In this document: piece after piece, positions 40,390 through 64,000 of the stretch
How positions within the stretch are numbered: position 1 is the first letter of the stretch
Layout of the letters: each line of letters starts with the position of its first letter
Origin: a virus
Lineage: Duplodnaviria > Heunggongvirae > Uroviricota > Caudoviricetes
DNA length: 64,000 bases
Direction: 5' to 3' (one strand)
IMG/VR virus record: IMGVR_UViG_3300035659_000002
Notes under the pieces: model-generated
Told to the model about the DNA's origin: nothing
The model's input: the letters and a program-made list of their open reading frames with translations, nothing else
Databases searched by the model: none
Translations under genes and position numbers: made by a program

Positions 40390-42078
40390 TTAGAAAGGAG
40401 TAGGACCGCCCTTTACATACCCCGCACGTTCCATTGCACGCGAGACTTTTTTAAATTGCGTCCATCGTTTTGCAAGGTATCCACTTTCACCAGGTTGTTT
40501 ATGGATACCGGTTTCGGAAGCCATATCTCGGATTTGGCACGCACGAGCATAGATTTTCGGATAGGATAATTTCAATTGGTGATAGTATTGCCATGAAGCG
40601 AATGGACAAAGCATACAGCCGTGCCTACCGAAAAACTCGGAGTTAGGATTCCGTTTGATGTCATGTCGAGCAAGCATCGCCAGGTCATCCTCATGGGAGA
40701 GTTTGAACACCGGGAGCATGTCAAACACGCGCATGACTGAACGATTAGTTATTGTCCCGTTTTGCATGAGTCGTTGCCATTGATTCATGTCGGTTGATGG
40801 CCAATTAGCAAGCCATTCTTTACCACCACGCATGACCCGTTCTCCCAATGCTTGATTTTGCTTGGCTTTGGCCTTTTCTTCTTTTTCCCGTTTTTTTCGT
40901 TCCTTTTCCTCGGGTGTCTCTTCATACGGCGGAGGCAAGGATAAGAAACTCGGGGTTGCATAGGGGTTCAATGATGCCCGACCCTCCGACTGAAATGCTT
41001 GCATTCCCAAGAATTGAAGGATGTCCACGTAGTCGCCCGGTTCGAGTTTTTCATAGAAAATCTCCTTGAGAAGCTTCTTATACGGGTTCAATTTCATTTT
41101 AAGGGTACACCAACGCTTATCCTCACGAGGATACATGGCTGAACGCTCGTAATATGTCTCCGCGTCATCTTGCGGGACAACAACGACCAAGGGAATTTTC
41201 ACCTTGAAAATATTAGCCAATGCTTGCACGTAATATTTCACGTAGTCATATTCGTCCATTTGTTCGGTGGGCAATTCGGTGTAATAACAAAAGTCAAACG
41301 GGATGTGTAATTCGAGTAACATGATTAACATAGCAACGGAATGTTCGGCCCCGTGAATCGACACGATCCTGGCCAATCGTTTGGTCCTGATGACATCATT
41401 CGCAATGTTATCCAGGCCTGCACGGTCGATGCCAAATAGTTCCACGAGATGAGGTTTCCATTTATAAAAATAATCCTCGGTTTCTTCGGTCTTGCCTTCA
41501 ACGGCCCATGGTATTTTAAAGCTATCATCAGGTTGAATATTCAATCCTCTTATATAATTTCTATTTGCCTCGATGCGTGCAACGTTCGCCGGATCAAGAA
41601 CGGGAACTTTATAATGCTCGCCCCGTTGGGACATCACACCCAATGAATCATTATGTAAATCAAATTCCCGCGTGGTTTCAAAATGGGTTACCATGTCATG
41701 AAATTCTTTCGGCCATCTTGCAACCTGGTCTGGAGTGAAGATCGCCGTAATCTTTTCCTTTTCTCCTTCTATTTCATCGAGATGCATATCAACGATGGCA
41801 TCCGCTTGATCCCCTCCAATAATCTTGAATCCTTTTTCTGTTAACATGTCAGGGTGTGTTTTTTGAATTATCATATCGTGTATTTTAACTATTTGATTCG
41901 TGAATTTATTGACAAAAAACCCGGTGATGATTCCCTTCTTGACCGGTGATAATTTCACGAATACCTCGGACCTTGAATATTTTTTTGACATCCTGGCCTT
42001 GTGGATTGTTGCTTTGGTAGTTTCGGACGCGGCCGCTCGGTTCTTTCGACCGTGTTTTCTTTTGAGATATTCCGACAT
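40390..42078 (-). CDS. PAPS-reductase-like (HUP fold) protein with a degenerate PP-loop and an N-terminal extension
   Basis: RWCTLKMKLNP, LGMQAFQSEGRA, PVFKLSHED and RHGCMLCPF motifs; SGGKDS replaced by IHGAEHS. Confidence 0.75.
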   Translation of the reverse strand: MSEYLKRKHGRKNRAAASETTKATIHKARMSKKYSRSEVFVKLSPVKKGIITGFFVNKFTNQIVKIHDMIIQKTHPDMLTEKGFKIIGGDQADAIVDMHLDEIEGEKEKITAIFTPDQVARWPKEFHDMVTHFETTREFDLHNDSLGVMSQRGEHYKVPVLDPANVARIEANRNYIRGLNIQPDDSFKIPWAVEGKTEETEDYFYKWKPHLVELFGIDRAGLDNIANDVIRTKRLARIVSIHGAEHSVAMLIMLLELHIPFDFCYYTELPTEQMDEYDYVKYYVQALANIFKVKIPLVVVVPQDDAETYYERSAMYPREDKRWCTLKMKLNPYKKLLKEIFYEKLEPGDYVDILQFLGMQAFQSEGRASLNPYATPSFLSLPPPYEETPEEKERKKREKEEKAKAKQNQALGERVMRGGKEWLANWPSTDMNQWQRLMQNGTITNRSVMRVFDMLPVFKLSHEDDLAMLARHDIKRNPNSEFFGRHGCMLCPFASWQYYHQLKLSYPKIYARACQIRDMASETGIHKQPGESGYLAKRWTQFKKVSRAMERAGYVKGGPTPF

Positions 42079-43779: not shown

Positions 43780-44817
43780 TTAACTCGGTCCTGTTTCTTG
43801 ATCGGCAAATGCCCCTGACGGATATTCCCAATGTTTCACGAACACGGGCTGATAGTAATTCTCGGAATTGACTTGCTGAATGTCCTCGGGATTCATGTGG
43901 AATGGCGTGCCTTTCATTGCGTAGTCAAGAATTGATTGATTGATATAACTCTTAACACCGTTTATCGTTTTAGTTTTATACTTGATTGATCTATCAAATT
44001 CACTTTCATGATTGAACATTTGCCAAAAACAATTCGGGTCAACATGCATCAGGGATGCGAATTGATCGGGCTTGCCGAATATACAACCGGCGCATGAGCA
44101 TCGACCCCATCCCATTTTATAACAGGGGTGAGGATTGATATTCCATCGTTCAATGATTTTCCATACTTCCGTGATGTCCCAATTGAACACCGGTCGCCAC
44201 GCGTCAACATATCGGTTCGATTTTTCTCTTTTCGATTCATTAACTTTCATTTTAGATCGGGCGGTATCGCAATGATCCATGATTTCAAATTGTTTATATT
44301 TAGAACGTGCCACGGATTCTTGCGCGCGTTCGCCGGTGATCATGAGAGTCTTTTTGTTATTGAATCGTGCTTGATTATTCATTGCCGCACGACCAGCTTC
44401 GATCTTGAGATAGGCACTACACCATCTATATCTTAATTTACTCGTGACCATGGGAAACAATCGACGTGTTGATTTTTTGCCGCCTTTGCCGCCTGATTCT
44501 TTAATCTGGCCACCCGGCACTTCAAATCGGATAGGTAATGTTTTCCTGTTTTCTCGAAGCATCTCGCCACGAAACCCGCCGGTTCGCCACGAGTAATAAA
44601 TCGGCAACCCGAGGGCATTGGCCACGGCACGACAATAACCCGGAGTTACCGTCCAATCCATAAAATGCCCGGATTCCCGGCCATCGACTTCATGATGCCA
44701 TAGCTCGATCTTCTCTTTCGGGACACCGAGTTCGAGGAGATGCAAGATACATGCCAGGGAATCCTTGCCGCCGGAGAAGGCAACGATAATATAATCATAT
44801 TGATCGGGATTTACCAT
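43780..44817 (-). CDS. PAPS-reductase family protein with an intact PP-loop
   Basis: FSGGKDS, RWCSAYLKI, TGERAQES, RPV..W and RCSCAGCIFG motifs. Confidence 0.9.
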   Translation of the reverse strand: MVNPDQYDYIIVAFSGGKDSLACILHLLELGVPKEKIELWHHEVDGRESGHFMDWTVTPGYCRAVANALGLPIYYSWRTGGFRGEMLRENRKTLPIRFEVPGGQIKESGGKGGKKSTRRLFPMVTSKLRYRWCSAYLKIEAGRAAMNNQARFNNKKTLMITGERAQESVARSKYKQFEIMDHCDTARSKMKVNESKREKSNRYVDAWRPVFNWDITEVWKIIERWNINPHPCYKMGWGRCSCAGCIFGKPDQFASLMHVDPNCFWQMFNHESEFDRSIKYKTKTINGVKSYINQSILDYAMKGTPFHMNPEDIQQVNSENYYQPVFVKHWEYPSGAFADQETGPS

Positions 44818-50989: not shown

Positions 50990-52621
50990 TTATCGAGACC
51001 TCTTATTCCCTTGGAGAAATGCAAGAACCTTGTCCTCGTTCAAGTCAGCCCGCATAAATATATCCTTCGTGCGAAGCACGTTCTCGCCCATCTTCAATGC
51101 AGGCACGGAAAATATATTATATATCAATGCTTCGGTTTCCGTGTCCGGATCCTCGTCAACCATACGTTTTACATGCTTGATCCCGTGCTTGTCCAGGAAC
51201 GCGATCAATGTCGGACATTTATGGCAATCCTTCGTGGTGAACACTTCAACGATGCCAATGGTAGTTTTGTTTTCTTTTCTCTCTTCCTTTGCCCATTCCT
51301 TTTCTTGTAGCATCATGGCATATCGTGGATAACTCGGCAAATGCCAAATTTGATAGGGCTTGATCGTGCCATCCTGGATATCAGTCTTGAAATTTCTGAT
51401 ACTCGTATAGATGAGACCAGATTCTCGGCTTGACATAAATTCCCGCATCAATTGTTTATAGATAACACTTTCTTTTTGCTTGTCAGTAAGAACCGTCTCC
51501 GGTTCAGTTCCTTTGATAGCAAATTGTCCTTCGATTCTATATCCCGCATTGATAAATGATCGTTTTACTTGCTCGGAGTATTCTTTTTGTCCACTTTCCA
51601 TTCGTTGCCCCGCCAAGAGCTGCTGCTTGATGTAATTATTCCATCTATCTCGTGCAATGTCCACCCAATTGATTTTCTCGTATTCGGTTTTGTTCGTGCG
51701 AGGGAATGCCTTGTCGAACTCGTCACGCAAGGCCACGTAACCAATATATTTATCTCCAAGTTTATAAGTGTATTCAGGATGCGAAAACACATGAATGTCA
51801 TTGATGATGCTCGTGTCCACGAATCGCTTATCTTCTAATACATTGATGGCATTGATGAATGTTACCCAATCAATACCCTGGTTTTGCATATCATTCCAGA
51901 TCGCATAAAATGGAACGGCACCACCATAACGGTTACCGGCATTGGCCTTCTCGATGGCATTCCGCAATATCAAGGCAAATTTCTCGTCGGAGATGGATGC
52001 TTTGTTTTTCCGTTTCTCGGGATGCGTGTCCCGTGGAAACCATGCCCAGGTCTCGCCGGGCTTTATCTCCCGAAAATCCAATCCCGCACGATTCAACGTG
52101 GCTCGCCATTCTTTTTTAAATGCTTGGCTCGTGTTATTGCCAGCAGCGTTCTTCCGTGCCTTGTTATAGGCCGCTTCCATGGATTGTGAAGTTACAAATT
52201 CCTCGTGGGCCGAAAGCAATAGAATCCATCGCACTTTTCCATTCGGCCCTTCCCAGAGAATCACGCCGGGATAAAACAATGACACGTTGCCCATGTCAGC
52301 AGGGGATGGATGACACGATGCAATGTTCATGTCTTTTCGATACGCAACGTGGGTGTGAAATTGCATCTCGTAATCATGTTCGTGAAAAAACGGGGAAGCC
52401 ATGCTCGTGCCTTTGACTTGCTCGTACCCCGTGATACCGGATTGACCTTCTTCAAAATCCAATCCTCCCGATATCTCGATCTTGTTGGTCCTGGCTATTT
52501 TTTCGAGGTCTTTCAAGAATTTAGTACCGAATTTCTTTCGCATGAGTTTATTTTTATTTTTTTGAACAGCTTTGTCATATTCAACCTCGAACCACGCGAG
52601 ACTTGCTTTTTGATAGGGCAT
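50990..52621 (-). CDS. JAB/MPN metalloprotease domain, wHTH-like middle region and C-terminal glutaredoxin domain
   Basis: E(ISGGL)...FHTH...PSPAD JAB motif; VEVFTTKDCHKC...SVPAL glutaredoxin motif. Confidence 0.75.
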   Translation of the reverse strand: MPYQKASLAWFEVEYDKAVQKNKNKLMRKKFGTKFLKDLEKIARTNKIEISGGLDFEEGQSGITGYEQVKGTSMASPFFHEHDYEMQFHTHVAYRKDMNIASCHPSPADMGNVSLFYPGVILWEGPNGKVRWILLLSAHEEFVTSQSMEAAYNKARKNAAGNNTSQAFKKEWRATLNRAGLDFREIKPGETWAWFPRDTHPEKRKNKASISDEKFALILRNAIEKANAGNRYGGAVPFYAIWNDMQNQGIDWVTFINAINVLEDKRFVDTSIINDIHVFSHPEYTYKLGDKYIGYVALRDEFDKAFPRTNKTEYEKINWVDIARDRWNNYIKQQLLAGQRMESGQKEYSEQVKRSFINAGYRIEGQFAIKGTEPETVLTDKQKESVIYKQLMREFMSSRESGLIYTSIRNFKTDIQDGTIKPYQIWHLPSYPRYAMMLQEKEWAKEERKENKTTIGIVEVFTTKDCHKCPTLIAFLDKHGIKHVKRMVDEDPDTETEALIYNIFSVPALKMGENVLRTKDIFMRADLNEDKVLAFLQGNKRSR

Positions 52622-52656: not shown

Positions 52657-53742
52657 TCATAAAGTAGTGAAATGTTCAAGGGTTATATTCCGCTTGAGCA
52701 TTTGGTCTTTTTCGATCTGTTTCAATAATCGTTCTGCCGCTTGTGAATAATACGTCGATCCGGTTTTCAACCATTCAATATAAACAGGTAATTGCACGTT
52801 CTTATTGGCCGCTTCCAAAATTTCGATGCGATCTTTTCCACCGATTAAATAAACCTTTTTATGGCCTTCATCTTTTAATTTGTGCAAGAACCGAGATAAT
52901 CGTTCAATGAATATCTCCCGTTGCCCTGGTCTTTTTTTCAACAATTTTGGTGGGTATTCATAATCAGGCATCTGGTCCTCGATTCTATATGGAATGACGG
53001 TCAGGGGTTCGGACATGATGATTTTTTCAATATACGGGTTTCTCGTTATTGCTGACATCATTTGATGGCTCATACTTTGCGATATCTTCTTTTTTCCATA
53101 TTTCTCCCGTGTTTTCCCGGCTAATGCACAAGGCAAGAAAACGATTGGTTTTTTCGTGTCGAATTTTTCATTCATGACGCGTTCAAACCATGCCACGTTC
53201 GGCGGGTTGTTAAAGTCATCATTGAACGGCACCGTTTTTTGTGGGACGGGCATTGTACGGTTTTCAATCACCATTTTTTTCCATTCCGCACGAGCAAGAT
53301 TCTCCAGATCACTTATTCTATATCCCTTTCCCGTTGCCATGGATAATTTCCTGATGCGGGTATTCCAATTCTTTTTGAGTAGCCAGCTCAATCCTAATGT
53401 GCCTTGAATGTAATTGATTGCTTCGTCAATTTTGAGATATTCGGGTTTCATTTTTTCCCGTGTTTTAGCATCGACATGATGACCTACACGTTCAAGTACA
53501 TGTATATAAGTTTCAAGTTTATCATTCAGATATTTTCTCCCTTTGATGATGCGTTCTTCAATCATGTATGGCCTTGCCAGGTCACCACTGATCACCAGGA
53601 TTTGTTTTGTGGCCAACAGCTCCACGCTTGTCGTTTGTAACAAGACACCCTTGACCGGGACGGGTTGTCCGGTTTCCATGGTGATAAAGAATCCCGTGAT
53701 ATTTCTCGTGCCGGTGTTGGTTTGCACGAAGGCATAGGTCAT
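52657..53742 (-). CDS. Shared N-terminal tag domain plus DUF5591/ArcS-like domain
   Basis: Start MTYAFVQT; cargo FLPC...SQSMSH...SEPLTVIP...YEYPP matches the DUF5591 domain of archaeosine-synthase-type proteins. Confidence 0.8.
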   Translation of the reverse strand: MTYAFVQTNTGTRNITGFFITMETGQPVPVKGVLLQTTSVELLATKQILVISGDLARPYMIEERIIKGRKYLNDKLETYIHVLERVGHHVDAKTREKMKPEYLKIDEAINYIQGTLGLSWLLKKNWNTRIRKLSMATGKGYRISDLENLARAEWKKMVIENRTMPVPQKTVPFNDDFNNPPNVAWFERVMNEKFDTKKPIVFLPCALAGKTREKYGKKKISQSMSHQMMSAITRNPYIEKIIMSEPLTVIPYRIEDQMPDYEYPPKLLKKRPGQREIFIERLSRFLHKLKDEGHKKVYLIGGKDRIEILEAANKNVQLPVYIEWLKTGSTYYSQAAERLLKQIEKDQMLKRNITLEHFTTL

Positions 53743-53746
53743 GCTT

Positions 53747-54574
53747 TTACCACCGTTTCGGCACCGGATACTCCTTGGCTTGTTTCTCGTTGACCACGAT
53801 GAATTTTGCATTAATGTCTAATGCTCTTCCCCCGATTTCCGCTTCCTTCATGCTTGGATAAGGTTGAGGTGATAGAAATTTGTCATTAGAAGGATAATAG
53901 TGGAATCCACCATCATCAAGCCATCGAATAACATAATAGCCCGTGGGAAACTTGTTTAAAAAATAAGCATTCCCTTTATCTGTTTCCCCGGTTATCTTGA
54001 TAGTTTCATCCGGTTTTAGTTCCACGAGAGGTTCGGGTTTATATTCCAAATACCAGGTGTCATCCCAAGCAATATACCAAACCGTCGCCCCGTACCTCCC
54101 CACTTCTGCGATTGCCTTTTCTCGATCATGTATTCTTTTATAAAAAGATAATTCGGCACTCGATGATTGCTTGTCAACGCCGGTGACCGTGTAGATCGCG
54201 TGGTCCTGTTCAGCCGTATGTTTTTCCTGGATGAATACGGAATCACCGGGCTTGGGCATTTCAGATGTATGCCGTTCCAACGTGATTTTCACTCGAATGT
54301 CTTTTCCCGGATATGTAATGATTGCCAGGGACGGTTTCTCGATCACGGTTTGCCCCGGTGTTTTCACGGATGGAGTTATAGCGGCGATGTATGGTTCGGC
54401 ATCTTGGCCGCTAATAACTAAAATTCCCTTGGTTGCCAATAGCTCCGCACTTGTTGTTTGTAACAAGACACCCTTGATCGGGACAGGTCGCCCGGTTGTT
54501 TGATCGACAAAGAACCCCGTGAGTATTTTTCCTTTCTTGTTGGTTTGCACGAATGTAAATAACATGTAATTCAT
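53747..54574 (-). CDS. Shared N-terminal tag domain plus unknown beta-rich cargo
   Basis: LFTFVQTNKKGKILTGFFVDQTTGRPVPIKGVLLQTTSAELLATKGILVISG. Confidence 0.8.
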   Translation of the reverse strand: MNYMLFTFVQTNKKGKILTGFFVDQTTGRPVPIKGVLLQTTSAELLATKGILVISGQDAEPYIAAITPSVKTPGQTVIEKPSLAIITYPGKDIRVKITLERHTSEMPKPGDSVFIQEKHTAEQDHAIYTVTGVDKQSSSAELSFYKRIHDREKAIAEVGRYGATVWYIAWDDTWYLEYKPEPLVELKPDETIKITGETDKGNAYFLNKFPTGYYVIRWLDDGGFHYYPSNDKFLSPQPYPSMKEAEIGGRALDINAKFIVVNEKQAKEYPVPKRW

Positions 54575-56004
54575 CTCGATTCTTCCACTACGCGGAACTC
54601 GAACTCTTTAATCTTTTGTTCAGGAATGGGATAATTGGTTCGGATGCGAAATTGTGTCCATACATCATAACCCGTTGGATTTTCTATTTCAACCAAATAA
54701 TGCTCTATCTCGGATCGTTCGATGCCAGGGTTTCCTTCCAAGATGGCATCTTCAATATATTTGATCGGGACACCGGCAAGACCAATTGGCCGATGCGTGC
54801 CATAGAGATATTTTCCTGGCTTGGGCTTGGTTTTTTTCTTCGGTGGTTCTTTGCCAAGTTTTCGCATCAGGTCATCTCTTTTCTTTTCCAATTCCTCGAT
54901 ACGTTCCTTTTTCTTTTTCCGTTCATACGATCCGCCGCCACGCATTCCACCAAAAGAACGAACACGGGTTTTCCGGGAACGTTCCGATTTTAATTCTTGC
55001 TCGGTTTGTTTCAATTCCAATTCGAGCAAATGAGTTTCCCATGGTTTTCCCGGCGAGACCACTTCCAACAGGGCTTTTGCCCGTTTCTCGAACCGTGCAT
55101 ATTTTTCTCTTCCAATATATTGATGCAATTCCCTTTCGATGATTGGCAATTGCTGTGTTGCTTGGTACTTGGTCATTTTTACAACCGGATAGTGGAGATT
55201 GAAAATAGCGTTATAATCAGCAATCGTCATTAGATGATATTCTTTAAGAATTTTTTTAGGCAATTCCACGTTGATAGCAAATATATCCGCACCTCCACGC
55301 GTGAACTCCTTTGACATTCCATGTCCGGTTGGAAAATACGTGCCGCTCGTTACTAGAACCGTTTCCACTTCCAAGCTTTCAACGCCTAGCTCCTTGGCAA
55401 TGGCATCTGAAAAACCAGGTTTCTCATAAGTTTCATACAAGGTCAAATAAGGGTCTGCAACATAGAGCCATATTTTTTGCACGCCAGGGACAGGCTCGAT
55501 AAACCAACGTCCAATTGCTGATAATTGTTTAGGATCAATATAGCTGGGCATCAAACGAAATGTTTTTTTAACCTTCTCGTAATAATCCATCACGCAATCG
55601 AACGTGGGGCAATTCACCACCTCCATGGAGAGCTTGCTATGTTCGCTATTATCAATTGCGATAAAATTAGTTTTTCCCTGGAGAACGATGAACACACGAG
55701 AATCGGAATCAGTTTGATATTTTGCGAACCCAAGCCCGATATAATCTTCGAGCTTGGTCACCCCCTTCGATGGCTCGACACGCGTGATTGGTTTGTCGGG
55801 TTGTTTCAGCTTGATAACCATGTCGATATATGGCCTTGCTTGCTCGCCGCTAATTACCGGGATTTGCTTGGTTGCAAGTAGTTCCGCATTTGTCGTTTGA
55901 AACAAGTTTCCTTTGACCGGGACGAGCTTCCCGTTTTCAGCGTTGATGAAGAATCCGGTGATCGTGGTTTCTTTTATCCCTGTTTGAACGAATGCGAATG
56001 TCAT
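54571..56004 (-). CDS. Shared N-terminal tag domain plus unknown multi-domain cargo with a coiled coil
   Basis: MTFAFVQTGIKETTITGFFINAENGKLVPVKGNLFQTTNAELLATKQIPVISG. Confidence 0.8.
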   Translation of the reverse strand: MTFAFVQTGIKETTITGFFINAENGKLVPVKGNLFQTTNAELLATKQIPVISGEQARPYIDMVIKLKQPDKPITRVEPSKGVTKLEDYIGLGFAKYQTDSDSRVFIVLQGKTNFIAIDNSEHSKLSMEVVNCPTFDCVMDYYEKVKKTFRLMPSYIDPKQLSAIGRWFIEPVPGVQKIWLYVADPYLTLYETYEKPGFSDAIAKELGVESLEVETVLVTSGTYFPTGHGMSKEFTRGGADIFAINVELPKKILKEYHLMTIADYNAIFNLHYPVVKMTKYQATQQLPIIERELHQYIGREKYARFEKRAKALLEVVSPGKPWETHLLELELKQTEQELKSERSRKTRVRSFGGMRGGGSYERKKKKERIEELEKKRDDLMRKLGKEPPKKKTKPKPGKYLYGTHRPIGLAGVPIKYIEDAILEGNPGIERSEIEHYLVEIENPTGYDVWTQFRIRTNYPIPEQKIKEFEFRVVEESR

Positions 56005-56027
56005 GGATCATCACCATGAAAAAATGA

Positions 56028-57542
56028 TTAAAGATATTGCATGAACTCGGCCAAGGGCATCCATGGAATATCGTGCTGTTTGGCCGCGTCTATCCTGGTT
56101 TGTCCGTAACCTTCACCTATCACGAGAAGCTTGGTTTTACCACTCGGGGCTTTGAAAATTCCACCCTTGGCCACGACCATGGCTTCCAATTGATCCTTGG
56201 TGTAATCAGGATGCGATCCGGTAATGTACAAGGTGAGGCCTTGCAAGGTCGGGATATTCCCGGTGAATCGTCGTAGATCCTCAAGCCGCGCTCCCGTGAC
56301 CGCCGCTTTTTTCGTCGTGGTCACGGGCTTGGCTACTAGCGTGGTTGTCGATACCTTTTCTTTTTTAGGCTTGCCTTCAGCCCTGATAGGAATACCAACG
56401 CCTGGAATTTCAGCTCCCTCGAACCCCGTGAATCCGGGAGGAGCGATTGTCACACCGGTGGTTGCCAATTTAACTCCCGTCGGTTTTTTGATTTTCATTT
56501 CTTGTGCCTCGTATTCCTTGTTTTTTGCATCATTATAATTGATTATTTCTTCAATGGTTTTTCTCAATTCTTCCACGGTTGTATCAGGAGGAAGAAGAAG
56601 ATGAGTGCTTTTAAAAAAAGTCAATTGCTCGGAAAGATCATGTTTATGGTGGAGATACCATGGATCTTTATGGCTGATCGAAAAACCTTGATAAGACCCT
56701 ACAATTTTAATATCCTTATATTTGCCCCTGGAATGAAAATGATCTCCATTTCCATCAGATTTAGTGCATCTGAATCCCAACGCTTCCAGGATGTCATAAC
56801 CCTTTGGTTCTTCCAATTGCTCGGCCAATTTCTCGGCCTCGGCCTCGCCGGGTAGCTCGGCAATCTCCAAGGGTTCTTTGATTATTTGTTCACCCTGGGC
56901 GAAGGTTTGTTCGATTTGTTTTTCCATAGCTGCCCTGCCGGTAAATGCTGCAAGAATGGCCCGAGCAGCAACACGATCTTTTTCCTTTTCCTCTTCAGGA
57001 AGATTCTTGTACGGGGTATTGGCCAGGGCAAGACGTGTTTCTCGTTTTTGTGGTTTTTCCTTGTACACGGGATCATCATAGGTTTTAGCCACGCGCCCCC
57101 ATCCTATATGGCTTGCAGCTGCCAGCTTCTCGATATCAGTAATGCCATTCATGATTTTTGATAAGATGGCTTTTGCACTCGATTGCCCGGCTGCAGCTCC
57201 GAATGTCCCTGGTTGTGATATGCCATAATGATAAGCGGCATCGAGGGCTTGGCTTTGAACTGCTGCGTATTGCTCGATCATTGCCTTGGCGATTTTGATT
57301 TTTTCTACTTTGGGTTGCTTGACCGCTTTCTTCATGGGCTTCAAGGGCATCCCCTGGGCCTTGAGATATGGCCGCGCCTCCTCGCTGCGGAGGATCTTGA
57401 TCTTCTTGGTGTTTAACAATGCTTTGGTCGTCGTTTGTAGCACGGTCCCTTTCACGGGAACAACGCGGCCGGTTTCGACCTCGATAAAGAATCCGGTGAT
57501 TGTCTCACCTTGCTTTCCTGTTTTCACGAATGCGAACGTCAT
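56028..57542 (-). CDS. Shared N-terminal tag domain plus RyR-like domain and C-terminal BRCT domain
   Basis: Tag MTFAFVKT...; ASHIGW...PYKNLPEEEKEKDRVAARAIL (RyR domain); LQGLTLYITG...LEAMVVAKGG...TKLLVIG...AAKQHDIPWM (BRCT). Confidence 0.8.
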   Translation of the reverse strand: MTFAFVKTGKQGETITGFFIEVETGRVVPVKGTVLQTTTKALLNTKKIKILRSEEARPYLKAQGMPLKPMKKAVKQPKVEKIKIAKAMIEQYAAVQSQALDAAYHYGISQPGTFGAAAGQSSAKAILSKIMNGITDIEKLAAASHIGWGRVAKTYDDPVYKEKPQKRETRLALANTPYKNLPEEEKEKDRVAARAILAAFTGRAAMEKQIEQTFAQGEQIIKEPLEIAELPGEAEAEKLAEQLEEPKGYDILEALGFRCTKSDGNGDHFHSRGKYKDIKIVGSYQGFSISHKDPWYLHHKHDLSEQLTFFKSTHLLLPPDTTVEELRKTIEEIINYNDAKNKEYEAQEMKIKKPTGVKLATTGVTIAPPGFTGFEGAEIPGVGIPIRAEGKPKKEKVSTTTLVAKPVTTTKKAAVTGARLEDLRRFTGNIPTLQGLTLYITGSHPDYTKDQLEAMVVAKGGIFKAPSGKTKLLVIGEGYGQTRIDAAKQHDIPWMPLAEFMQYL

Positions 57543-57548
57543 GATCAA

Positions 57549-58088
57549 TCATCTGCTTTTTTGCCAATTTTCATAATCAGATATAGTATATTCCAATTCT
57601 TTAGTTTTCGAGAATTTTTCAAAATCTCTTTTGATACGACCAATTTCATAATTAATATTGATGATTTCATTTCGATTATCAATGTCTTTAAAATTAGGAT
57701 CTTCAAAAATTGATCCGTCTATTGAATCAGGTATATATCCCCATGAATATAGCATCAAAGAAACACGATATTCCAATTGAAAGCCTCCTCCACCATGAGA
57801 AATGTCCCCTATCCAATCTTGCCCTGGAAATTCTTGTTTGACCGCTTCTGGATAAGATAATCCAAGTATTCTATCAAATAATGGATTGCTCGCATGAAGC
57901 ATCCTCCATAGAAATGCCCGTAGAGGAATTGCATCTATAATGGCAATGTTTTTGGTTGATAACAAAGGTTCTGTTGTCGTTTGAAATAGGATACCCTTTA
58001 CAGGAATTTTGCGATTGGTTTCTACTTCGATAAAGAAACCGGTGAGTATTTCATCCTGTTTCTTGACTTGCACGAATGCATAGGTCAT
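57549..58088 (-). CDS. Shared N-terminal tag domain plus short unknown cargo
   Basis: MTYAFVQVKKQDEILTGFFIEVETNRKIPVKGILFQTTTEPLLSTKNIAII. Confidence 0.8.
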   Translation of the reverse strand: MTYAFVQVKKQDEILTGFFIEVETNRKIPVKGILFQTTTEPLLSTKNIAIIDAIPLRAFLWRMLHASNPLFDRILGLSYPEAVKQEFPGQDWIGDISHGGGGFQLEYRVSLMLYSWGYIPDSIDGSIFEDPNFKDIDNRNEIININYEIGRIKRDFEKFSKTKELEYTISDYENWQKSR

Positions 58089-58098
58089 GATCAATCAT

Positions 58099-59697
58099 CT
58101 ATGATGCTTTGAGTTTTTCTAATTTCTTTAAAGCATGATCCCGTTTATCCATGAGTGCGCCAATTTGCCTTGCACGTATATTACCTTCAAAGGTCATATC
58201 CCCGACCGTGCCGTAGCTTTCTATCTCCTTTATTCGTTGGTCTATCCCTTTGATATCATCTTCAAGTTCTTTTATTTCAGATTCGACATTCTCGGCAGGC
58301 GGCTCCGGTTCCGGTTCTTTCATGAATTTCATCCAAGATAACGATTGCACGGCGGCCTTGGTTAATTGCCTTTGCCATGCCCCTTCCGTAGGCGACCAAT
58401 GATAACCGTTATGTTTGAGTTCATCCCGGATGTTCTCCGGTGGTTTGCCATCAAAAAATAATTGTAACCGATTGGCCTCCACGTTCTCGACCACGCGGAC
58501 CCCGGCCTTCGTATATTCCTTGCTGCCACCGGCATAGGTGGACACTCGTGCTTGCTCTTCGGCAATACGATCCTTCACGCGCTGCATTTCTTGGAGTTGG
58601 CTTTGCAATCGAAAATGTGGATACCCTAATCGGCCCGACATGTCAGGTTTGAGTAGCTTGGTTGCTGTATCTTGCGAATAACCAAGTTTCACGAGTTCTT
58701 TCAAGGTATCTATGCCTTTTTTCTTGAGAACCCTATTCGTTGCTTTCATGAGTTCTTGATCGTGTTCCAATTTGACAAGCTTGGCCTTTAATTGCTCGAC
58801 TGCCTCCGGTGTCCCACCCCGTATCGGCCCGCTCGGGAGAACCTTGCTGATTGCCGTTTTCTCGGACATCTTTTTGAGCTTCAGTTCTTCACGCTTTTTT
58901 TCGATCAAGTCGATTTCGGCCTTGGCATCTTGAACGGTTGCATAAGGTGACCAATCAAGTACATTGCCCTCGATTTTATGGCCAGCTTTCACGCTACCAT
59001 CAACAGATATCATGATCACCCAATCCTTATAATTAATGGTCTCGGGTTGAACGCTAAATTGTTTCTCATGTTCTCGTTTTTCTCGATATAATCGTTCAAT
59101 AACCATGCGATCAATCAGATCGAGGTCAGGATATTTCACGAGCTTGCCCGCATCGAGCTGCAAAGCCCATGCTTCCAATGCCTCGCCCTGGGCTTTTCGT
59201 GCGGCCAAACTTATAGGGTCGATTTGGCCTTTGCCAGGTCTCTTTGCACGGTATTCAACATCGAAAAGATAATCCTTTGCTTTTTGGTGAGCATCACGCG
59301 CGGCCTCCCGAATAATTCCCTTTTCCCATTTCTCCGCATTCTCTAGTTCAAAACCCAGATCGGTCGTGGTTTGTAACCGTTGGATTTCATCCCTCGCATG
59401 TTTTTCATGCTGCGTTCCATCCAGGATCTTGGCAATAGTTTCCAACCGTGCTATCATTTCCGCAACACGTTCTGGCAACCCGAATGATCGTTCGGGAATG
59501 TTCGGTGGAAGGGCAGCTATGTAAGGCATGGAAGCTTCACCCGTGATGATCGGGATCTGCTTGGTTGCTAACATCTCCGCGCTCGTGTATTGAAAGAACT
59601 TTCCTTTAACTAGAACGTATTTTCCCGTTTGCGCGTTCACGAAAAATCCGGCAAGTGCTTTATCTTTTGTTCCTGTTTGCACGAACATGAATGTCAT
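58099..59697 (-). CDS. Shared N-terminal tag domain plus a DUF3560/polyvalent-protein-type C-terminal domain
   Basis: Tag MTFMFVQT...; NRLQLFFDGKPPENIRDELKHNGYHWSPTEGAWQRQLT is typical of the C-terminus of DUF3560-type proteins. Confidence 0.75.
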   Translation of the reverse strand: MTFMFVQTGTKDKALAGFFVNAQTGKYVLVKGKFFQYTSAEMLATKQIPIITGEASMPYIAALPPNIPERSFGLPERVAEMIARLETIAKILDGTQHEKHARDEIQRLQTTTDLGFELENAEKWEKGIIREAARDAHQKAKDYLFDVEYRAKRPGKGQIDPISLAARKAQGEALEAWALQLDAGKLVKYPDLDLIDRMVIERLYREKREHEKQFSVQPETINYKDWVIMISVDGSVKAGHKIEGNVLDWSPYATVQDAKAEIDLIEKKREELKLKKMSEKTAISKVLPSGPIRGGTPEAVEQLKAKLVKLEHDQELMKATNRVLKKKGIDTLKELVKLGYSQDTATKLLKPDMSGRLGYPHFRLQSQLQEMQRVKDRIAEEQARVSTYAGGSKEYTKAGVRVVENVEANRLQLFFDGKPPENIRDELKHNGYHWSPTEGAWQRQLTKAAVQSLSWMKFMKEPEPEPPAENVESEIKELEDDIKGIDQRIKEIESYGTVGDMTFEGNIRARQIGALMDKRDHALKKLEKLKAS

Positions 59698-59709
59698 TTT
59701 TAATAAACC

Positions 59710-60720
59710 TCAATTCATACTATAAACACGAATTACCTTGGCCTCCATTGCCTCGCTACCAGAGATTCTTGCGTCCTGAACTATTTTCACGAATGCCTTG
59801 TAGCATTCTACCTCCATCTTGCTTGGGATATTAATAAAATGACCCTCTCTAGTGATCTTCTCGACGCGGGAATCCCTGGAAAAATTAATATCAATGTATG
59901 TCTGATATTGATACCGGTCTTTTTTTGTATAATTCACGAGGTCAGGATGTCGTGACTGAAATAATCTCATTTCCTGACCCAATTTACTTCGAGCATCGAA
60001 CGTGATACCAACAACCACGGTTTCATAAAAACCGTGACCCTCGTATCCGGGCTGTCCATGCATCGGCCATAATTCAATTAACTTGTTTATGCTAGCTTCG
60101 AGCGCGCGGTCAAGCACGTCTTGATATGAAGATGCACGTTCGCTCGGTAAGTCATGCATTTTAAAAGCGGCACGACGTAATTCATAACCTCCGCTGATCG
60201 GTTTTCCCAAGGTGAGTTCAGGACCAGGAGCGGCCTTGCCCTCTCGAATAGCAGCAAGCCTGGCCTTCGCAGCTGCGATCCGCTGTTCATACGGGTCGAT
60301 TAGTTTCTCCGGTGTTTCCGTGAAATATTCCTTTTCATAGATTGGCTCTTCGGTGAGCAAGGGTTGTGGCTTTGCCTTCACGGTCTCTTTTTCGACATGC
60401 TTCCTGGATTCTTCTTCCAATCCCTTCTTGTATGCTGCTTTCGACATAATGACATCGGTTTGCTTGTCAGGATCATGCAACAATATTTTACCAAATTTAC
60501 CAAGGAACTTGTTTGCACTATCCGCAGCGAGAATTTCAACCCCTCTACTTTGTAGCATATCATGCGTGCTAATATTCAATTCATTATTTCCGACCGGGAC
60601 TATTTTTCCGGTGTCGATGTCGAAAAACGAACCTTGGAGTCGGCCCAGGTATAATCCTTCCGCAGGCATCGTGCCAGGCCGGTCTAGTAGTTTGAGTATC
60701 ACGAATGCGTATCGTGCCAT
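59710..60720 (-). CDS. Divergent N-terminal tag domain plus unknown cargo
   Basis: Start MARYAFV; GSFFDIDTGKIVPV...DMLQSRGVEIL aligns with the tag. Confidence 0.75.
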   Translation of the reverse strand: MARYAFVILKLLDRPGTMPAEGLYLGRLQGSFFDIDTGKIVPVGNNELNISTHDMLQSRGVEILAADSANKFLGKFGKILLHDPDKQTDVIMSKAAYKKGLEEESRKHVEKETVKAKPQPLLTEEPIYEKEYFTETPEKLIDPYEQRIAAAKARLAAIREGKAAPGPELTLGKPISGGYELRRAAFKMHDLPSERASSYQDVLDRALEASINKLIELWPMHGQPGYEGHGFYETVVVGITFDARSKLGQEMRLFQSRHPDLVNYTKKDRYQYQTYIDINFSRDSRVEKITREGHFINIPSKMEVECYKAFVKIVQDARISGSEAMEAKVIRVYSMN

Positions 60721-60754
60721 GAGATTTTCACCTGGAAAATAAAAATTATATTTA

Positions 60755-62500
60755 TTATGCTTCAAGTTCCTTCTCTTCAAGTTCCTCCGGTATTTCCTTC
60801 TCTTCAATTTCCGGTTCGCCGCCTACACGGGGAGCGAGCATGTATGTTATGGTTGACCGATTATTCGGGTTTCCATAATCTTTCACGCTTACAAGCATGA
60901 CGTTATCTCGAATCAAGGCGACCTCGACACGCGGGGCATCCATTGGCTGAATGATGGATTTACTTTCGCCAAAAACCAGGTTCTTGAACATACGCGCAAA
61001 AAGCACGGCATTGAAATGACTACCTACCGGTTTGTGAGGTGATTTCAATACCTGTTCCGGTATTATTGCCGCACGAAGTTCGCTCCGGTTTTCGGTGAAT
61101 TTCTCGTCTTTATAAACGCTCAAGTAGGTTATTTGCAAGGTTCTCTCGCCAAGCATTGCTTCGATCTGTTTCACCCACGCATCCCTAGTTGCCTTGGTAA
61201 CATTCGATTTTTTTCCGATGCCTAATTCATTGACCTTATCTTTAATTTCTTGCAAGGTCATGGCTTGTTTTACCGTCACCTGGGTAGGGTCATATTCGAC
61301 AAACAAGATCCTGTCCACCGTTTCTTCTGTTTCCCTTTTCTTTCCCATCCTTTCATTTTCACATGCTCGGTTGCCGATCAACAATGCCCCGGTGAGCGCG
61401 TTACCAATATTGTCTTTGCCACTGCCTAATGGAAACACGAGGATCGCATTGGCCTTTTCTATCATCGTGGTTTGAAGGTCATCGAATGCCTTTGCTTCTT
61501 TCATGTAATTTGCTTGAATGGTACTCATGTCATGAAGTTTGACCGTGAATATTTTTTTATACGTTTGGCCTCCTTTTTGGATCGGTTCAAACCCCATATA
61601 GTTATGAGCAAGATCAATGGAGAACCTGATTTCCTCGATAATCAATTCTTTTCGCATTTCTTTGGCCGCTTCGCTTCCCGAACCATGCGTTCCCGCAGCT
61701 GCTGTTAATCGAAAACGATTGGTTACCTTGATCATGTCTACAATATTAACAGCAAATTGAACGGGGGATTGAGGTGGATTGAACTCGGAACATGATAAAG
61801 GTGATATGATCAATTTAGCTCCGATGTTATGACCATTATCAAACACGGTTGTTGTAATCCCTGATGCATCCCAGGTGAAAATCGTTTGGTCATCAATGCG
61901 GCCCAATGCAACAAGTGCAGCTTTGAAAACTTTGGTGTCAATTATCATTGATGCCGTCGTAACGAATCGTTTTTGAGATGCAAATATCCATGATTCCTTT
62001 CGAGCCAATGCTTGTTCCATTGACATCGAACCGGCTTGAGCTTTTGCACGTTGGGCTAACAATTCTTGATATTCCTCTTTCTCTTCAGAAGCGCGCTTGG
62101 CCTCGACTTTTCGTTCGCTCAATGTTTTTTGTGTTTGAGCCTCTGCTATTAAACCCTTTTGGGCTTCAGTTATCATTTGTTCTTTTTGCTTTTTCCATTC
62201 TTCCATGGTGAGAAGCTTGAACGGATAAGGTGATGGTGGCCCTGAAAGTGCAAGTACCCATCCTAACTTTTCCAGGAACTTATCCGTGGCTTCCGAGTCT
62301 GATATATCACCAAACCCTTCGCCCATTCCTTTGCTGGCTACAAGAACGCCGCTGTTTTTCAACACTTGTGGATTGGCATAATTGATATCTCGCCCGTGAA
62401 CCGGAATGAGCTTGCCGCTATCCATGTCTATGAACGAACCCGTAATGGTTTGATAGTCATCTGATCTGCTTAATACCACGAACACGTATTTTGCCATCAT
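60755..62500 (-). CDS. Divergent N-terminal tag domain, coiled linker and PCNA-like sliding-clamp domain
   Basis: FKAALVALGRIDDQTIFTWDASGITTTVFDNGHNIGAKLII...VQFAVNIVDMIKV and C-terminal HFNAVLF...ITYMLAPRV match PCNA N- and C-terminal motifs. Confidence 0.75.
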   Translation of the reverse strand: MMAKYVFVVLSRSDDYQTITGSFIDMDSGKLIPVHGRDINYANPQVLKNSGVLVASKGMGEGFGDISDSEATDKFLEKLGWVLALSGPPSPYPFKLLTMEEWKKQKEQMITEAQKGLIAEAQTQKTLSERKVEAKRASEEKEEYQELLAQRAKAQAGSMSMEQALARKESWIFASQKRFVTTASMIIDTKVFKAALVALGRIDDQTIFTWDASGITTTVFDNGHNIGAKLIISPLSCSEFNPPQSPVQFAVNIVDMIKVTNRFRLTAAAGTHGSGSEAAKEMRKELIIEEIRFSIDLAHNYMGFEPIQKGGQTYKKIFTVKLHDMSTIQANYMKEAKAFDDLQTTMIEKANAILVFPLGSGKDNIGNALTGALLIGNRACENERMGKKRETEETVDRILFVEYDPTQVTVKQAMTLQEIKDKVNELGIGKKSNVTKATRDAWVKQIEAMLGERTLQITYLSVYKDEKFTENRSELRAAIIPEQVLKSPHKPVGSHFNAVLFARMFKNLVFGESKSIIQPMDAPRVEVALIRDNVMLVSVKDYGNPNNRSTITYMLAPRVGGEPEIEEKEIPEELEEKELEA

Positions 62501-64000
62501 GCTTCGACCTGTGCTTCTTTTTTCTTTTTAGATTCTTCTTTCTTTTGTCTTTTTTTCTCCCGTCGATCCAAAGCATCCTCCTTTTGTTCAATCATTTCTT
62601 GGGTAATGCTCCATCCGACGGGTTTGTGATAAATATGGATAAGATCCGATTTACCGGCGTTGTCATACGTGATAACAGCGCGATCAATTAGTTCAAGTTT
62701 ATAGAATTGTAAATTAGGATCAAAATAACTTTTGACATAGATATGTCCATCCATGGCAACACGATTGACAATTCGAGCCATTTGGTTTGATGGTCTTTCA
62801 TTCCCTTCTTCTTCCTCTTCTTCTTCGGAGGTTTCTTGCATTATTTTCAAGTATTCAGGGGATAGATAGTTTTTCCATTCCAAACCACCAATCACCCGTT
62901 CTTTTAAAATGTTGGTTTTGACCGTGCTAGAACCTAACCCCTCGCATCCATTAATAATAATGACATCATGAATACTATCGCCCATTGCATTGAATTGATC
63001 CATGGTCACCGGGACACAATTTCCAAACCGCTCGGCAGGTTTATCCGTGATCACGATGCCGTTGCTCGTTCTATTCATGTTGAAATATTTTTCGATCATG
63101 GCATGTTCTTGGATTGATATACCACCCGTCCCAACGAACCATGGCACGAGTTTGAGATTATCCCCTCTTGGTTTCAACCACGTGTTTTCATAGAACTCCA
63201 GGGAATATTGCATCGGTTTCATGGGCTTGTATTGCCATGCCTCGAACATGGTAAATCGACGGTAACCACCGAATAAGGTCGCCTCACCCGCAATGAATTG
63301 AAGTTTGGGATGCCTGATGCTTCGCCAATTTTTCGATAGTATTATCCCATTTTGATTAAGGAGAGGCAAGCATTCATTCACGAGCCATCGGATAAATTTA
63401 TCCTCGATGCCCGTTTCTATGTTCCATTTAGCCGTGCCATATTTATAATCGAATTCATCCGAATATGGTGGATCAAACAAGATTAAATCGAATTTATAAT
63501 TATCAGCTTTGCACGCAGCAATATATTTTTGTACCGTTGTTAGGACATTCGCATGAGTCGGGACAGCCACTTTTTTTTGAATTTCAGAAATGGTTTTCAT
63601 TTTGGGCTGTCCGGTTTCTCGGGATATTACCGGTTTCCCGGTTTTCTTGTTGAGTACCATTTCCTCGCCAATGATCACCCGTAGCTTGGGAATAATGGTT
63701 GTTTCATTAACATCAACGCGAGTCGTGCAATAATCTGAACTACCACAGAATAAATGCACGTCTTTACCACTAGCTAATCTCATGCAAGAATCAGGAAACG
63801 GCATGGCCCGTCCAGCAGCGGTTTCTTGATTTTTTAGATAAATAATGCTTTCAACAAAATGCTCTTCATCCGGGACAAACCCACCAAGATATTTGGCTTT
63901 TTTCATGCCACTCCCAAGGATGAATAATCCTTCAGTAGCATTGAGATAAGATGAGGGCACGGGTTCACCAATTCCTCTACTTCCAATTGCCGCTGCTTTG
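62497..64000 (-). CDS. Amino-methyltransferase-like protein (DPPY), probably 5-prime truncated by the window edge
   Basis: HLFCGS (motif I-like), FDLILFDPPY (motif IV), CLPLLNQNGIIL; the frame stays open to position 64000 (KAAAIGSRGIGEPV...). Confidence 0.75.
   Translation of the reverse strand, partial: KAAAIGSRGIGEPVPSSYLNATEGLFILGSGMKKAKYLGGFVPDEEHFVESIIYLKNQETAAGRAMPFPDSCMRLASGKDVHLFCGSSDYCTTRVDVNETTIIPKLRVIIGEEMVLNKKTGKPVISRETGQPKMKTISEIQKKVAVPTHANVLTTVQKYIAACKADNYKFDLILFDPPYSDEFDYKYGTAKWNIETGIEDKFIRWLVNECLPLLNQNGIILSKNWRSIRHPKLQFIAGEATLFGGYRRFTMFEAWQYKPMKPMQYSLEFYENTWLKPRGDNLKLVPWFVGTGGISIQEHAMIEKYFNMNRTSNGIVITDKPAERFGNCVPVTMDQFNAMGDSIHDVIIINGCEGLGSSTVKTNILKERVIGGLEWKNYLSPEYLKIMQETSEEEEEEEGNERPSNQMARIVNRVAMDGHIYVKSYFDPNLQFYKLELIDRAVITYDNAGKSDLIHIYHKPVGWSITQEMIEQKEDALDRREKKRQKKEESKKKKEAQVEA

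Follow-up and report, generated by a model that had tools for sequence, protein, structure and literature searches.

What is a PCNA-type DNA clamp doing in a viral gene block where it shares its N-terminal module with the enzymes encoded around it? The question is raised by a gene at positions 60755-62500 (minus strand) of a 64,000-nt stretch of DNA, here called the window, from the Caudoviricetes record IMGVR_UViG_3300035659_000002. The open reading frame (ORF) listing gives it 581 aa, and its product is termed P0005, whose residue numbering is followed throughout. Sliding clamps are universal hubs of DNA replication, and in all well-studied systems known to us clients reach the clamp via short peptide motifs. 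A first-pass annotation, made from the sequence alone, had described P0005 as a PCNA-like sliding clamp with an N-terminal tag, a coiled linker and internal inserts, and had suggested a delivered or tethered clamp that hijacks or blocks host replication. Our analysis shows that residues 183-559 are a genuine two-domain PCNA fold. With a probability of roughly 0.55, we read the protein as the virus's own PCNA-family DNA clamp or platform, which the shared tag tethers to the partner or assembly of the other tagged DNA enzymes.

An exhaustive HMMER search of 1.84 billion representative proteins recovered four proteins, namely the fragment P0001 (133 aa, 99% identical to P0005 residues 449-581) and three true homologues, P0002 (454 aa), P0003 (558 aa) and P0004 (478 aa), with 25-35% identity. 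All three homologues are fusions of tag and clamp, and their synteny is conserved. Word-indexed protein searches with P0005 alone or with the alignment, as well as an IMG/VR scan with the family alignment, returned no relatives, and a metagenome scan yielded only one contig, the already known L003. Neither megablast with the 52-64 kb region nor tblastn with the clamp gave a useful match among phage records, and no PCNA is annotated in the first 50 kb of HCTV-1.

An AlphaFold2 (AF2) model of the clamp part, calculated from a four-sequence alignment, reached a predicted local distance difference test score (pLDDT) of 58 and a predicted template modelling score (pTM) of 0.54; a single-sequence AF2 run on full-length P0005 gave pLDDT 38. 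Foldseek returned at least 500 matches of the clamp model in the PDB (E ~1e-11), and all 50 listed were PCNA or 9-1-1 chains. VIA-align superimposed the model on PCNA with a Z score of 20.3 and a root-mean-square deviation (rmsd) of 2.5 Å over 236 of 248 residues, whole PCNA chains (e.g., human residues 1..253) mapping onto model residues 11-386. ESM Atlas holds the exact P0005 sequence, and its model matches archaeal PCNA clusters over residues 182-562 with a template modelling (TM) score of 0.88 by target. Shape searches of the Atlas and of BFVD listed viral and cellular PCNA, Rad1 and Rad9 among the matches.

At the sequence level, Pfam, NCBIfam and PHROGs assign no significant family to P0005, and neither PCNA_N (PF00705) nor PCNA_C (PF02747) appears even at E <=10. 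A profile of the clamp part built from the four family sequences matched 14 distinct sequences in the PDB, all of them PCNAs or archaeal sliding clamps (best E 1.2e-4, 1ud9). The alignments span the region from helix A1 to helix B1 as well as the C-terminal half up to the YxLAPR end: profile positions 18-95 align with residues 7-83 of 1ud9, and a second alignment covers residues 168-261 of 6aig, YxLAPR end included. In P0005 this end reads YMLAPRV (553-559) and was aligned to YLLAPK or YLLAPS of archaeal PCNAs, Y553 being invariant in the family. The clamp assignment of the first-pass annotation, for which it had proposed a Foldseek comparison with PCNA, is thus borne out by fold and profile alike, and its PCNA motifs, placed from about residue 180 to YMLAPRV and followed by an acidic tail, correspond to a fold at 183-559 and a tail at 560-581.

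Both interface strands, I1 and D2, occur in the model, and about ten lysines and arginines lie on the predicted helices A1, B1, A2 and B2 (K190, K193, K258, R262, R264, K334, K337, K348, R503 and K506). K193 is invariant across the four homologues, and all four predicted inner helices bear Lys or Arg. Cellular PCNAs (S. tokodaii 1ud9, the S. solfataricus heterotrimer 2ix2 and human PCNA) share the fold with P0005 from end to end (Z 19-20, rmsd 2.4-2.9 Å), together with the YxLAPR end and the basic residues on the four inner helices, at a structural identity of 8-16% (VIA-align). In contrast to them, P0005 carries ~180 residues of tag and spacer, three inserts, a basic core and a long acidic tail, escapes the Pfam and NCBIfam models, and has an apparently very short interdomain loop.

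The tag links the clamp to its neighbours. Residues 1-58 can be aligned with the N-terminal parts of the proteins from genes 59710, 58099, 57549, 56028, 54571, 53747, 52657 and 40390, so that at least nine window genes, at least eight besides the clamp gene, carry the module. A hidden Markov model (HMM) built from non-clamp tags only (window, L003 and L001, the contig encoding P0003) scored P0005 with 34.6 bits (E 1.4e-9), compared with 8.9 bits for the best of 2000 shuffled sequences, and scored the other clamp homologues with 24.8-39.6 bits; the N-terminal tag reported earlier is therefore real. Positions F7, G21, F23 and L47 are nearly invariant in the tag alignment. The tag of P0005 shares 48% identity with its orthologue in P0002 and 37% with the tag of the next gene, 59710, but only 19-33% with six close copies in the window, which among themselves reach 40-67%. 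In L001, the clamp tag is 36-43% identical to the tags of its own genome versus 25% to other clamp tags, which, small as the sample is, would be compatible with tags co-evolving within a genome. Against 5.8 billion clusters the tag profile found only nine proteins, all of the same virus group; the search also gives the length of the source contig as 137,329 bp.

Attempts to name the tag led to two candidates that we do not accept. The tag has no match in Pfam, and a single marginal match to eS25 in the PDB (E 0.0019) stood apart from remaining matches at E >=0.3. An RNase H-like fold for residues 1-100 rests on TM scores of 0.46-0.48 for the Atlas model and is kept as a lead; the nearest shapes are MutS domain II, RuvX, the IS110 N-terminal domain and terminase nuclease, and the tag alignment contains no conserved catalytic acidic residues. 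That the clamp's own tag binds DNA seems unlikely to us, given an isoelectric point (pI) of 5.1 for residues 1-98.

As a side observation on the tag of the next gene, the listed TTG start of 59710-60807(-) at 60807 would overlap the clamp gene; the true start is probably the ATG at 60720, which opens a product beginning MARYAF, the beginning of the tag, and is preceded by AGGTGA. Some 14 additional residues are inserted in this copy, which among the window's tags is the one most similar to that of the clamp.

Between tag and clamp, residues 99-175 consist to 64% of E, K, R, Q and A with two Pro/Gly, and a helix is predicted at 99-153 (pLDDT 51-65). The segment varies within the family: in P0002 only 31 of its 77 positions have a counterpart, and P0003 has ~50 extra residues between tag and clamp. 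A coiled coil was rejected, since the best heptad register places hydrophobic residues at only 36% of a/d positions. We therefore regard the linker as a flexible or single-helix spacer; the charged helix noted before was correctly recognised, at ~55-77 rather than ~90 residues, and the term coiled linker no longer applies. By eye, the linker of P0003 (~80-185) seems to contain two copies of a ~45-residue module (...GY.I...G..I.V....V.tlEEAKKFI.), and the same module follows the tag of a 473-aa protein of L001 (2760-4181 +).

Three internal inserts interrupt the clamp, as had been claimed; their positions were mapped from the model's secondary structure and HMMER alignments. In domain 1, the model contains strand A1 (183-188), helix A1 (189-200), strands B1-F1 (205-252), helix B1 (253-260), insert 1 (261-289, 29 aa) and strands G1, H1 and I1 (290-322). 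Domain 2 comprises helix A2 (331-349), strand B2 (352-357), insert 2 (358-397, 40 aa), strand C2 (398-404), insert 3 (405-455, 51 aa), strand D2 (456-464), strand F2 (491-497), helix B2 (498-510) and strands G2, H2 and I2 (524-555). Canonical PCNA has ~7 residues between helix B1 and strand G1, the site of insert 1, whose length differs among the four homologues and which is longest and rich in Lys/Arg in P0002. Insert 2 occurs in three of the four homologues with <=12% identity and is missing from P0002; its site in the B2-C2 hairpin is the position of the human K164 loop. Insert 3 was found in P0005 and in none of P0002, P0003 and P0004; it has a pI of 9.6 and is modelled as two helices joined by a 10-residue loop (pLDDT 54-67).

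In the PCNA topology, the front face bears the centre loop C1-D1, the interdomain connecting loop (IDCL) and the C-tail, and the back face the K164 loop B2-C2 and the D2-E2 loop. From this topology, inserts 1 and 2 should be on the back face and insert 3 on the front face beside interface strand D2. The earlier label of an HeH-like module, presumably meant for insert 3, found no backing: against Pfam at E <=10 this insert matches no HeH, SAP, LEM or Rho_N domain, and among PDB sequences its only, non-significant match (E 3.1) is the C-terminal end of RNA polymerase alpha. We reject the HeH identity as unproven and describe the insert by its modelled helix-loop-helix.

The connection between the domains is a further point of departure. 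According to the model (pLDDT ~70 at this place), all four homologues have ~8-11 residues between strand I1 and helix A2 (323-330/333 in P0005), compared with ~17 for the canonical IDCL and ~23 for IDCL plus strand A2, and ~12-16 residues of PCNA chains are left unaligned by VIA-align. The interdomain connection thus seems very short in the model, apparently truncated relative to the canonical IDCL. Charge is unusual as well. The core of canonical PCNA is acidic and its ring a head-to-tail homotrimer, whereas the clamp core of P0005 has a pI of 8.5 without tail and inserts and 9.05 with the inserts. The corresponding values are 9.2 for P0002, 9.1 for P0004 and 6.45 for P0003. An acidic tail is also found in P0002 and P0004, and P0003 lacks both the tail and the basic core. 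Joint presence of basic core and acidic tail across these four sequences suggests that the tail may act as an intramolecular electrostatic gate. Three traits are unusual in a ring clamp: the basicity of the core (pI 8.5-9.2), the acidic tail and the apparent shortness of the interdomain loop. As a natural variant at the start of the C-tail, P0001, which stems from a second sample, has Asp in place of the LAPR Ala (YMLDPRV); in PCNA this Ala lines the partner-binding region.

Divergent and extended clamps have been described in other viruses. The PCNA E301R from African swine fever virus (ASFV) lacks clear sequence similarity to cellular PCNAs and has an N-terminal extension, atypical loops and IDCL, and direct double-stranded DNA binding (PMC10506467, PMC10653895). 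Like P0005, it is viral, divergent and N-terminally extended, and it is among the BFVD matches to P0005; its extension, in contrast, is ~35 residues long and does not recur as a module in other viral genes, its IDCL (25 aa) is longer than canonical where that of P0005 is shorter, and its host is a eukaryote. BFVD matches also include viral PCNA-fold proteins of 431, 508 and 804 aa. The premise that PCNA is normally a bare ring was therefore too strong. PCNA genes are also reported from viruses and elements of Asgard archaea (Opia, Nidhogg, Skoll; 10H_0, 7H_42-like) (PMC11529989; bioRxiv 10.1101/2021.07.29.453957), which, as virus-encoded PCNAs in large elements of uncultivated archaea, resemble the present case. 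As far as the parts of these reports considered here go, those PCNAs differ in having been found by ordinary sequence comparison, were modelled close to P. abyssi PCNA, and are described with no tag, linker or inserts. PCNA genes in viruses are thus already known; what sets P0005 apart is the fusion of such a clamp to a shared module specific to this virus, in combination with basic core, acidic tail and an apparently reduced loop.

The genomic setting places the clamp among DNA enzymes. The start codon of the clamp gene and the TGA of the gene upstream share an ATGA motif. After the clamp gene, 34 nt lead to an AGGTGA box and the start codon of the following gene (ATG at 60720), and the whole lies within a long run of co-oriented genes. 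The order shared with the relatives is a DEAD/ResIII helicase, further along a tagged DnaJ-type zinc-finger protein, a methyltransferase-like gene or its C-terminal piece, the tagged clamp and the next gene. This last gene bears a tag both in the window (59710) and in L003, whereas the L001 gene at this place has none and is similar to window gene 50990-52621. Domains following the tag include a LigA-type BRCT domain (gene 56028), a DUF3560/phrog 'primase'-like domain (58099), a DUF5591/ArcS-like domain (52657) and a PAPS-reductase-like domain (40390).

Our preferred reading of a virus-owned, tethered clamp ties these observations together. The clamp part would bind or encircle viral DNA, and the tag on its long flexible arm would connect it with whatever the remaining tagged enzymes bind, be it a shared hub or one another's tags. 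The tag would then do the job of cellular PCNA-interacting peptide (PIP) boxes, and the BRCT, DUF3560, ArcS-like and PAPS-reductase-like proteins would be brought to replicating DNA. Fusion of tag and clamp together with synteny in three distant relatives is as expected of a core function in replication or DNA processing. The basicity of core and disordered loops, the acidity of the tail and the short interdomain loop suggest that DNA binding is perhaps more direct than in cellular PCNA, loader-free and tail-gated, and that partner recruitment may lean less on the classical PIP pocket. To call the clamp tethered, as the first-pass annotation did, is a fair description. We more tentatively envisage the shared tag as a virus-specific substitute for the PIP box, in which case a DNA-bound, possibly loader-independent clamp would use tag contacts to nucleate a replication and DNA-modification factory and the acidic tail would be a DNA-mimicking gate on the basic core. 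By functional analogy only, such a tag would resemble the PIP-box tool-belt or the cohesin-dockerin system in placing one recognition element on the flexible linkers of many enzymes, yet it is a folded N-terminal module of ~60 residues that the clamp itself also bears.

Several points weigh against the tethered-clamp reading. The claims on the short loop and on insert placement are carried by a structural model of moderate quality (pLDDT 58, four sequences). Near strand D2 and probably on the front face, insert 3 could hinder docking of a loader or polymerase. The tag of P0005 is a divergent subtype and may bind another partner than the rest. Canonical PIP boxes, which the first-pass annotation had suggested looking for in the element's proteins, do not exceed chance among 42 window proteins (one found versus 3.5 +/- 1.8 in shuffles, zero in tagged proteins); this agrees with a tag that takes over their role, but their absence counts as weak negative evidence. 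Finally, polymerase and clamp loader were found neither in the window nor in the ~10 kb upstream. In line with the earlier remark that the window holds no polymerase, Pfam and PHROGs detect no DNA polymerase or RFC family in window ORFs >=500 aa (the 2030-aa ORF 26752-32844 was left unscanned), NCBIfam finds neither polymerase nor RFC in the clamp and nine neighbouring genes, and precomputed Pfam matches reveal neither polymerase nor clamp loader in the ~10 kb upstream. A divergent polymerase or loader may be hidden, since Pfam missed the clamp as well.

That no loader was detected bears directly on a competing explanation, a distinctly less probable one that still deserves weight, in which P0005 is a non-ring, loader-independent processivity or scaffold factor like UL42 or UL44 that sits as a monomer or dimer with its basic face on DNA and uses tag and inserts for interactions. 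Loader-less viral clamp homologues have elevated positive charge and pI like the non-ring UL42 and UL44, which was linked to direct DNA binding (Kazlauskas & Venclovas 2011, PMC3201878). A core pI of 8.5-9.05 makes P0005 more typical of non-ring clamps by this measure, three of the four family members (8.5-9.2) agree with it, no RFC-like gene was found in the window, and the disordered loops are rich in Lys/Arg. Like P0005, herpesvirus UL42, UL44, BMRF1 and PF-8 have the PCNA fold and raised positive charge, and they have no dedicated clamp loader (PMC3201878); herpesvirus processivity factors are among the BFVD matches. Yet they rank below PCNAs in the structural list, have no profile similarity to the family and do not show the PCNA C-terminal motif. 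In structure and in sequence, P0005 matches ring-forming PCNAs best, both interface strands I1 and D2 are present, a host clamp loader could serve, and pI is a coarse criterion to which P0003, with its near-neutral core, does not conform.

That the tag acts as a packaging or localisation signal, with the tagged enzymes loaded into the virion or sent to one compartment and then working independently, appears rather unlikely, and it could hold together with a tethered clamp. One N-terminal module on many unrelated cargoes, each with a flexible linker, does resemble capsid-targeting sequences, and small proteins made of a tag and a short tail (in the window, in L001 and P0011; see below) would fit; but the tags are folded modules of 55-65 residues rather than short peptides, large DNA enzymes are among the cargoes, which are numerous for packaging, and nothing links them to structural genes. 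We hold it for quite improbable that P0005 is a decoy that poisons the host replisome by forming mixed rings with host PCNA or sequestering host PIP-box proteins. It retains the archaeal-PCNA-type YMLAPRV end, and no viral polymerase was detected in the window. At 8-16% identity to cellular PCNAs, however, co-assembly with host PCNA appears less likely. The main PIP platform, which is the interdomain loop, looks shortened, the gene lies, translationally coupled, in a conserved block for replication and DNA modification, its tag recurs on enzymes without an obvious anti-host role, and there is no indication of virion packaging. The proposed delivery to, and hijacking or blocking of, host replication thus gains no support from a gene coupled inside a DNA-enzyme block and not among structural genes. 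Very improbable, lastly, is a checkpoint or repair clamp of the 9-1-1 type or a degenerate relic without clamp activity, which the presence of Rad1, Rad9 and Hus1 among the structural matches, the extreme sequence divergence and the interrupting inserts might suggest. The sequence profile matches PCNAs only, and the C-terminal motif and basic helix residues are kept across four homologues at 25-35% identity, which indicates purifying selection on clamp features.

In a tethered clamp of the kind we favour, the clamp is permanently fused via a long spacer to a folded module that also stands at the start of at least eight neighbouring genes for DNA enzymes. Should the tag mediate assembly, this would be a different and directly testable answer to the tool-belt problem; if the tag substitutes for the PIP box, it would be a new way to organise a replisome tool-belt. 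Moreover, Pfam, NCBIfam and PHROGs miss clamps this divergent, and only structure or small family profiles bring them to light, which matters where archaeal viruses are said to lack replication genes.

Table. Parts of the clamp gene and its flanking genes, with positions in the window.
Feature	Position	Strand	Basis
Whole gene: tag, linker, PCNA-type clamp and acidic tail	60755..62500	-	ORF listing, ATGA overlap, three full-length homologues of equal architecture
Shared N-terminal tag module, divergent subtype (residues 1-58)	62327..62500	-	tag profile score, alignment
Post-tag segment (residues 59-98)	62207..62326	-	well conserved with P0002 only (54%)
Charged helical spacer of variable length (residues 99-175)	61976..62206	-	composition, predicted helix, homologue alignment
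Clamp domain 1 (residues 183-322; strands A1-I1, helices A1, B1)	61535..61954	-	AF2 model, PDB profile alignment, VIA-align, Foldseek
Insert 1 (residues 261-289), helix B1 to strand G1	61634..61720	-	low-pLDDT loop in model
Very short interdomain connection (residues 323-330)	61511..61534	-	model secondary structure, pLDDT ~70
Clamp domain 2 (residues 331-559), YMLAPRV at end	60824..61510	-	model, Foldseek, VIA-align, profile alignment
Insert 2 (residues 358-397), B2-C2 hairpin	61310..61429	-	lowest-pLDDT stretch of model
Insert 3 (residues 405-455), C2-D2 turn, two-helix module (416-425, 436-449)	61136..61288	-	model pLDDT 54-67
YMLAPRV (residues 553-559), strand I2 and start of C-tail	60824..60844	-	alignment to archaeal PCNAs
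Acidic tail (residues 560-581), net charge ~-9	60758..60823	-	composition
Seven downstream co-oriented tagged genes (DUF5591/ArcS-like, BRCT-containing, DUF3560/phrog 'primase'-like, unknowns)	52657..60720	-	tag alignment, family libraries
Untagged gene upstream of and translationally coupled to the clamp gene, with a DPPY methyltransferase motif	62497..63960	-	translation, PHROG matches, ATGA overlap

The neighbourhood offers further observations. The upstream gene 62497-63960 (487 aa) has a DPPY motif and weak PHROG matches to DNA methyltransferases (E 1.7e-4). In L001, its C-terminal ~170 aa have a gene of their own (172 aa; 9042-9560 +) immediately ahead of the clamp, which points to gene fusion or fission between the relatives. 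The gene of the tagged zinc-finger protein, with a DnaJ-type CXXCXGXG motif (P0012; L001 8559-9041 +), lies upstream of the tagged clamp, one to two genes away. It is present in all four contigs that reach upstream of the clamp, among them L001, L002 and the contig of P0002, and its product is a candidate fixed partner of the clamp.

A tagged ArcS-like/DUF5591 gene (52657-53811, minus strand) and a tagged PAPS-reductase-like gene (40390-42078, minus strand) occur in the window, the latter with an untagged PAPS-reductase-family gene nearby (43780-44817, minus strand). The ArcS-like and PAPS-reductase-like genes may hint at a DNA base-modification route of the 7-deazaguanine type whose enzymes share the tag of the clamp. 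Small proteins consisting of the tag and a short tail are encoded at 57549-58094(-) in the window, at 4199-4582(+) in L001 and at 5875-6366 in L006 (P0011). The short tail is basic in P0011 and in the L001 copy, which directly precedes the DEAD/ResIII helicase gene, and such small proteins might serve a tag-based assembly as adaptors or compete within it.

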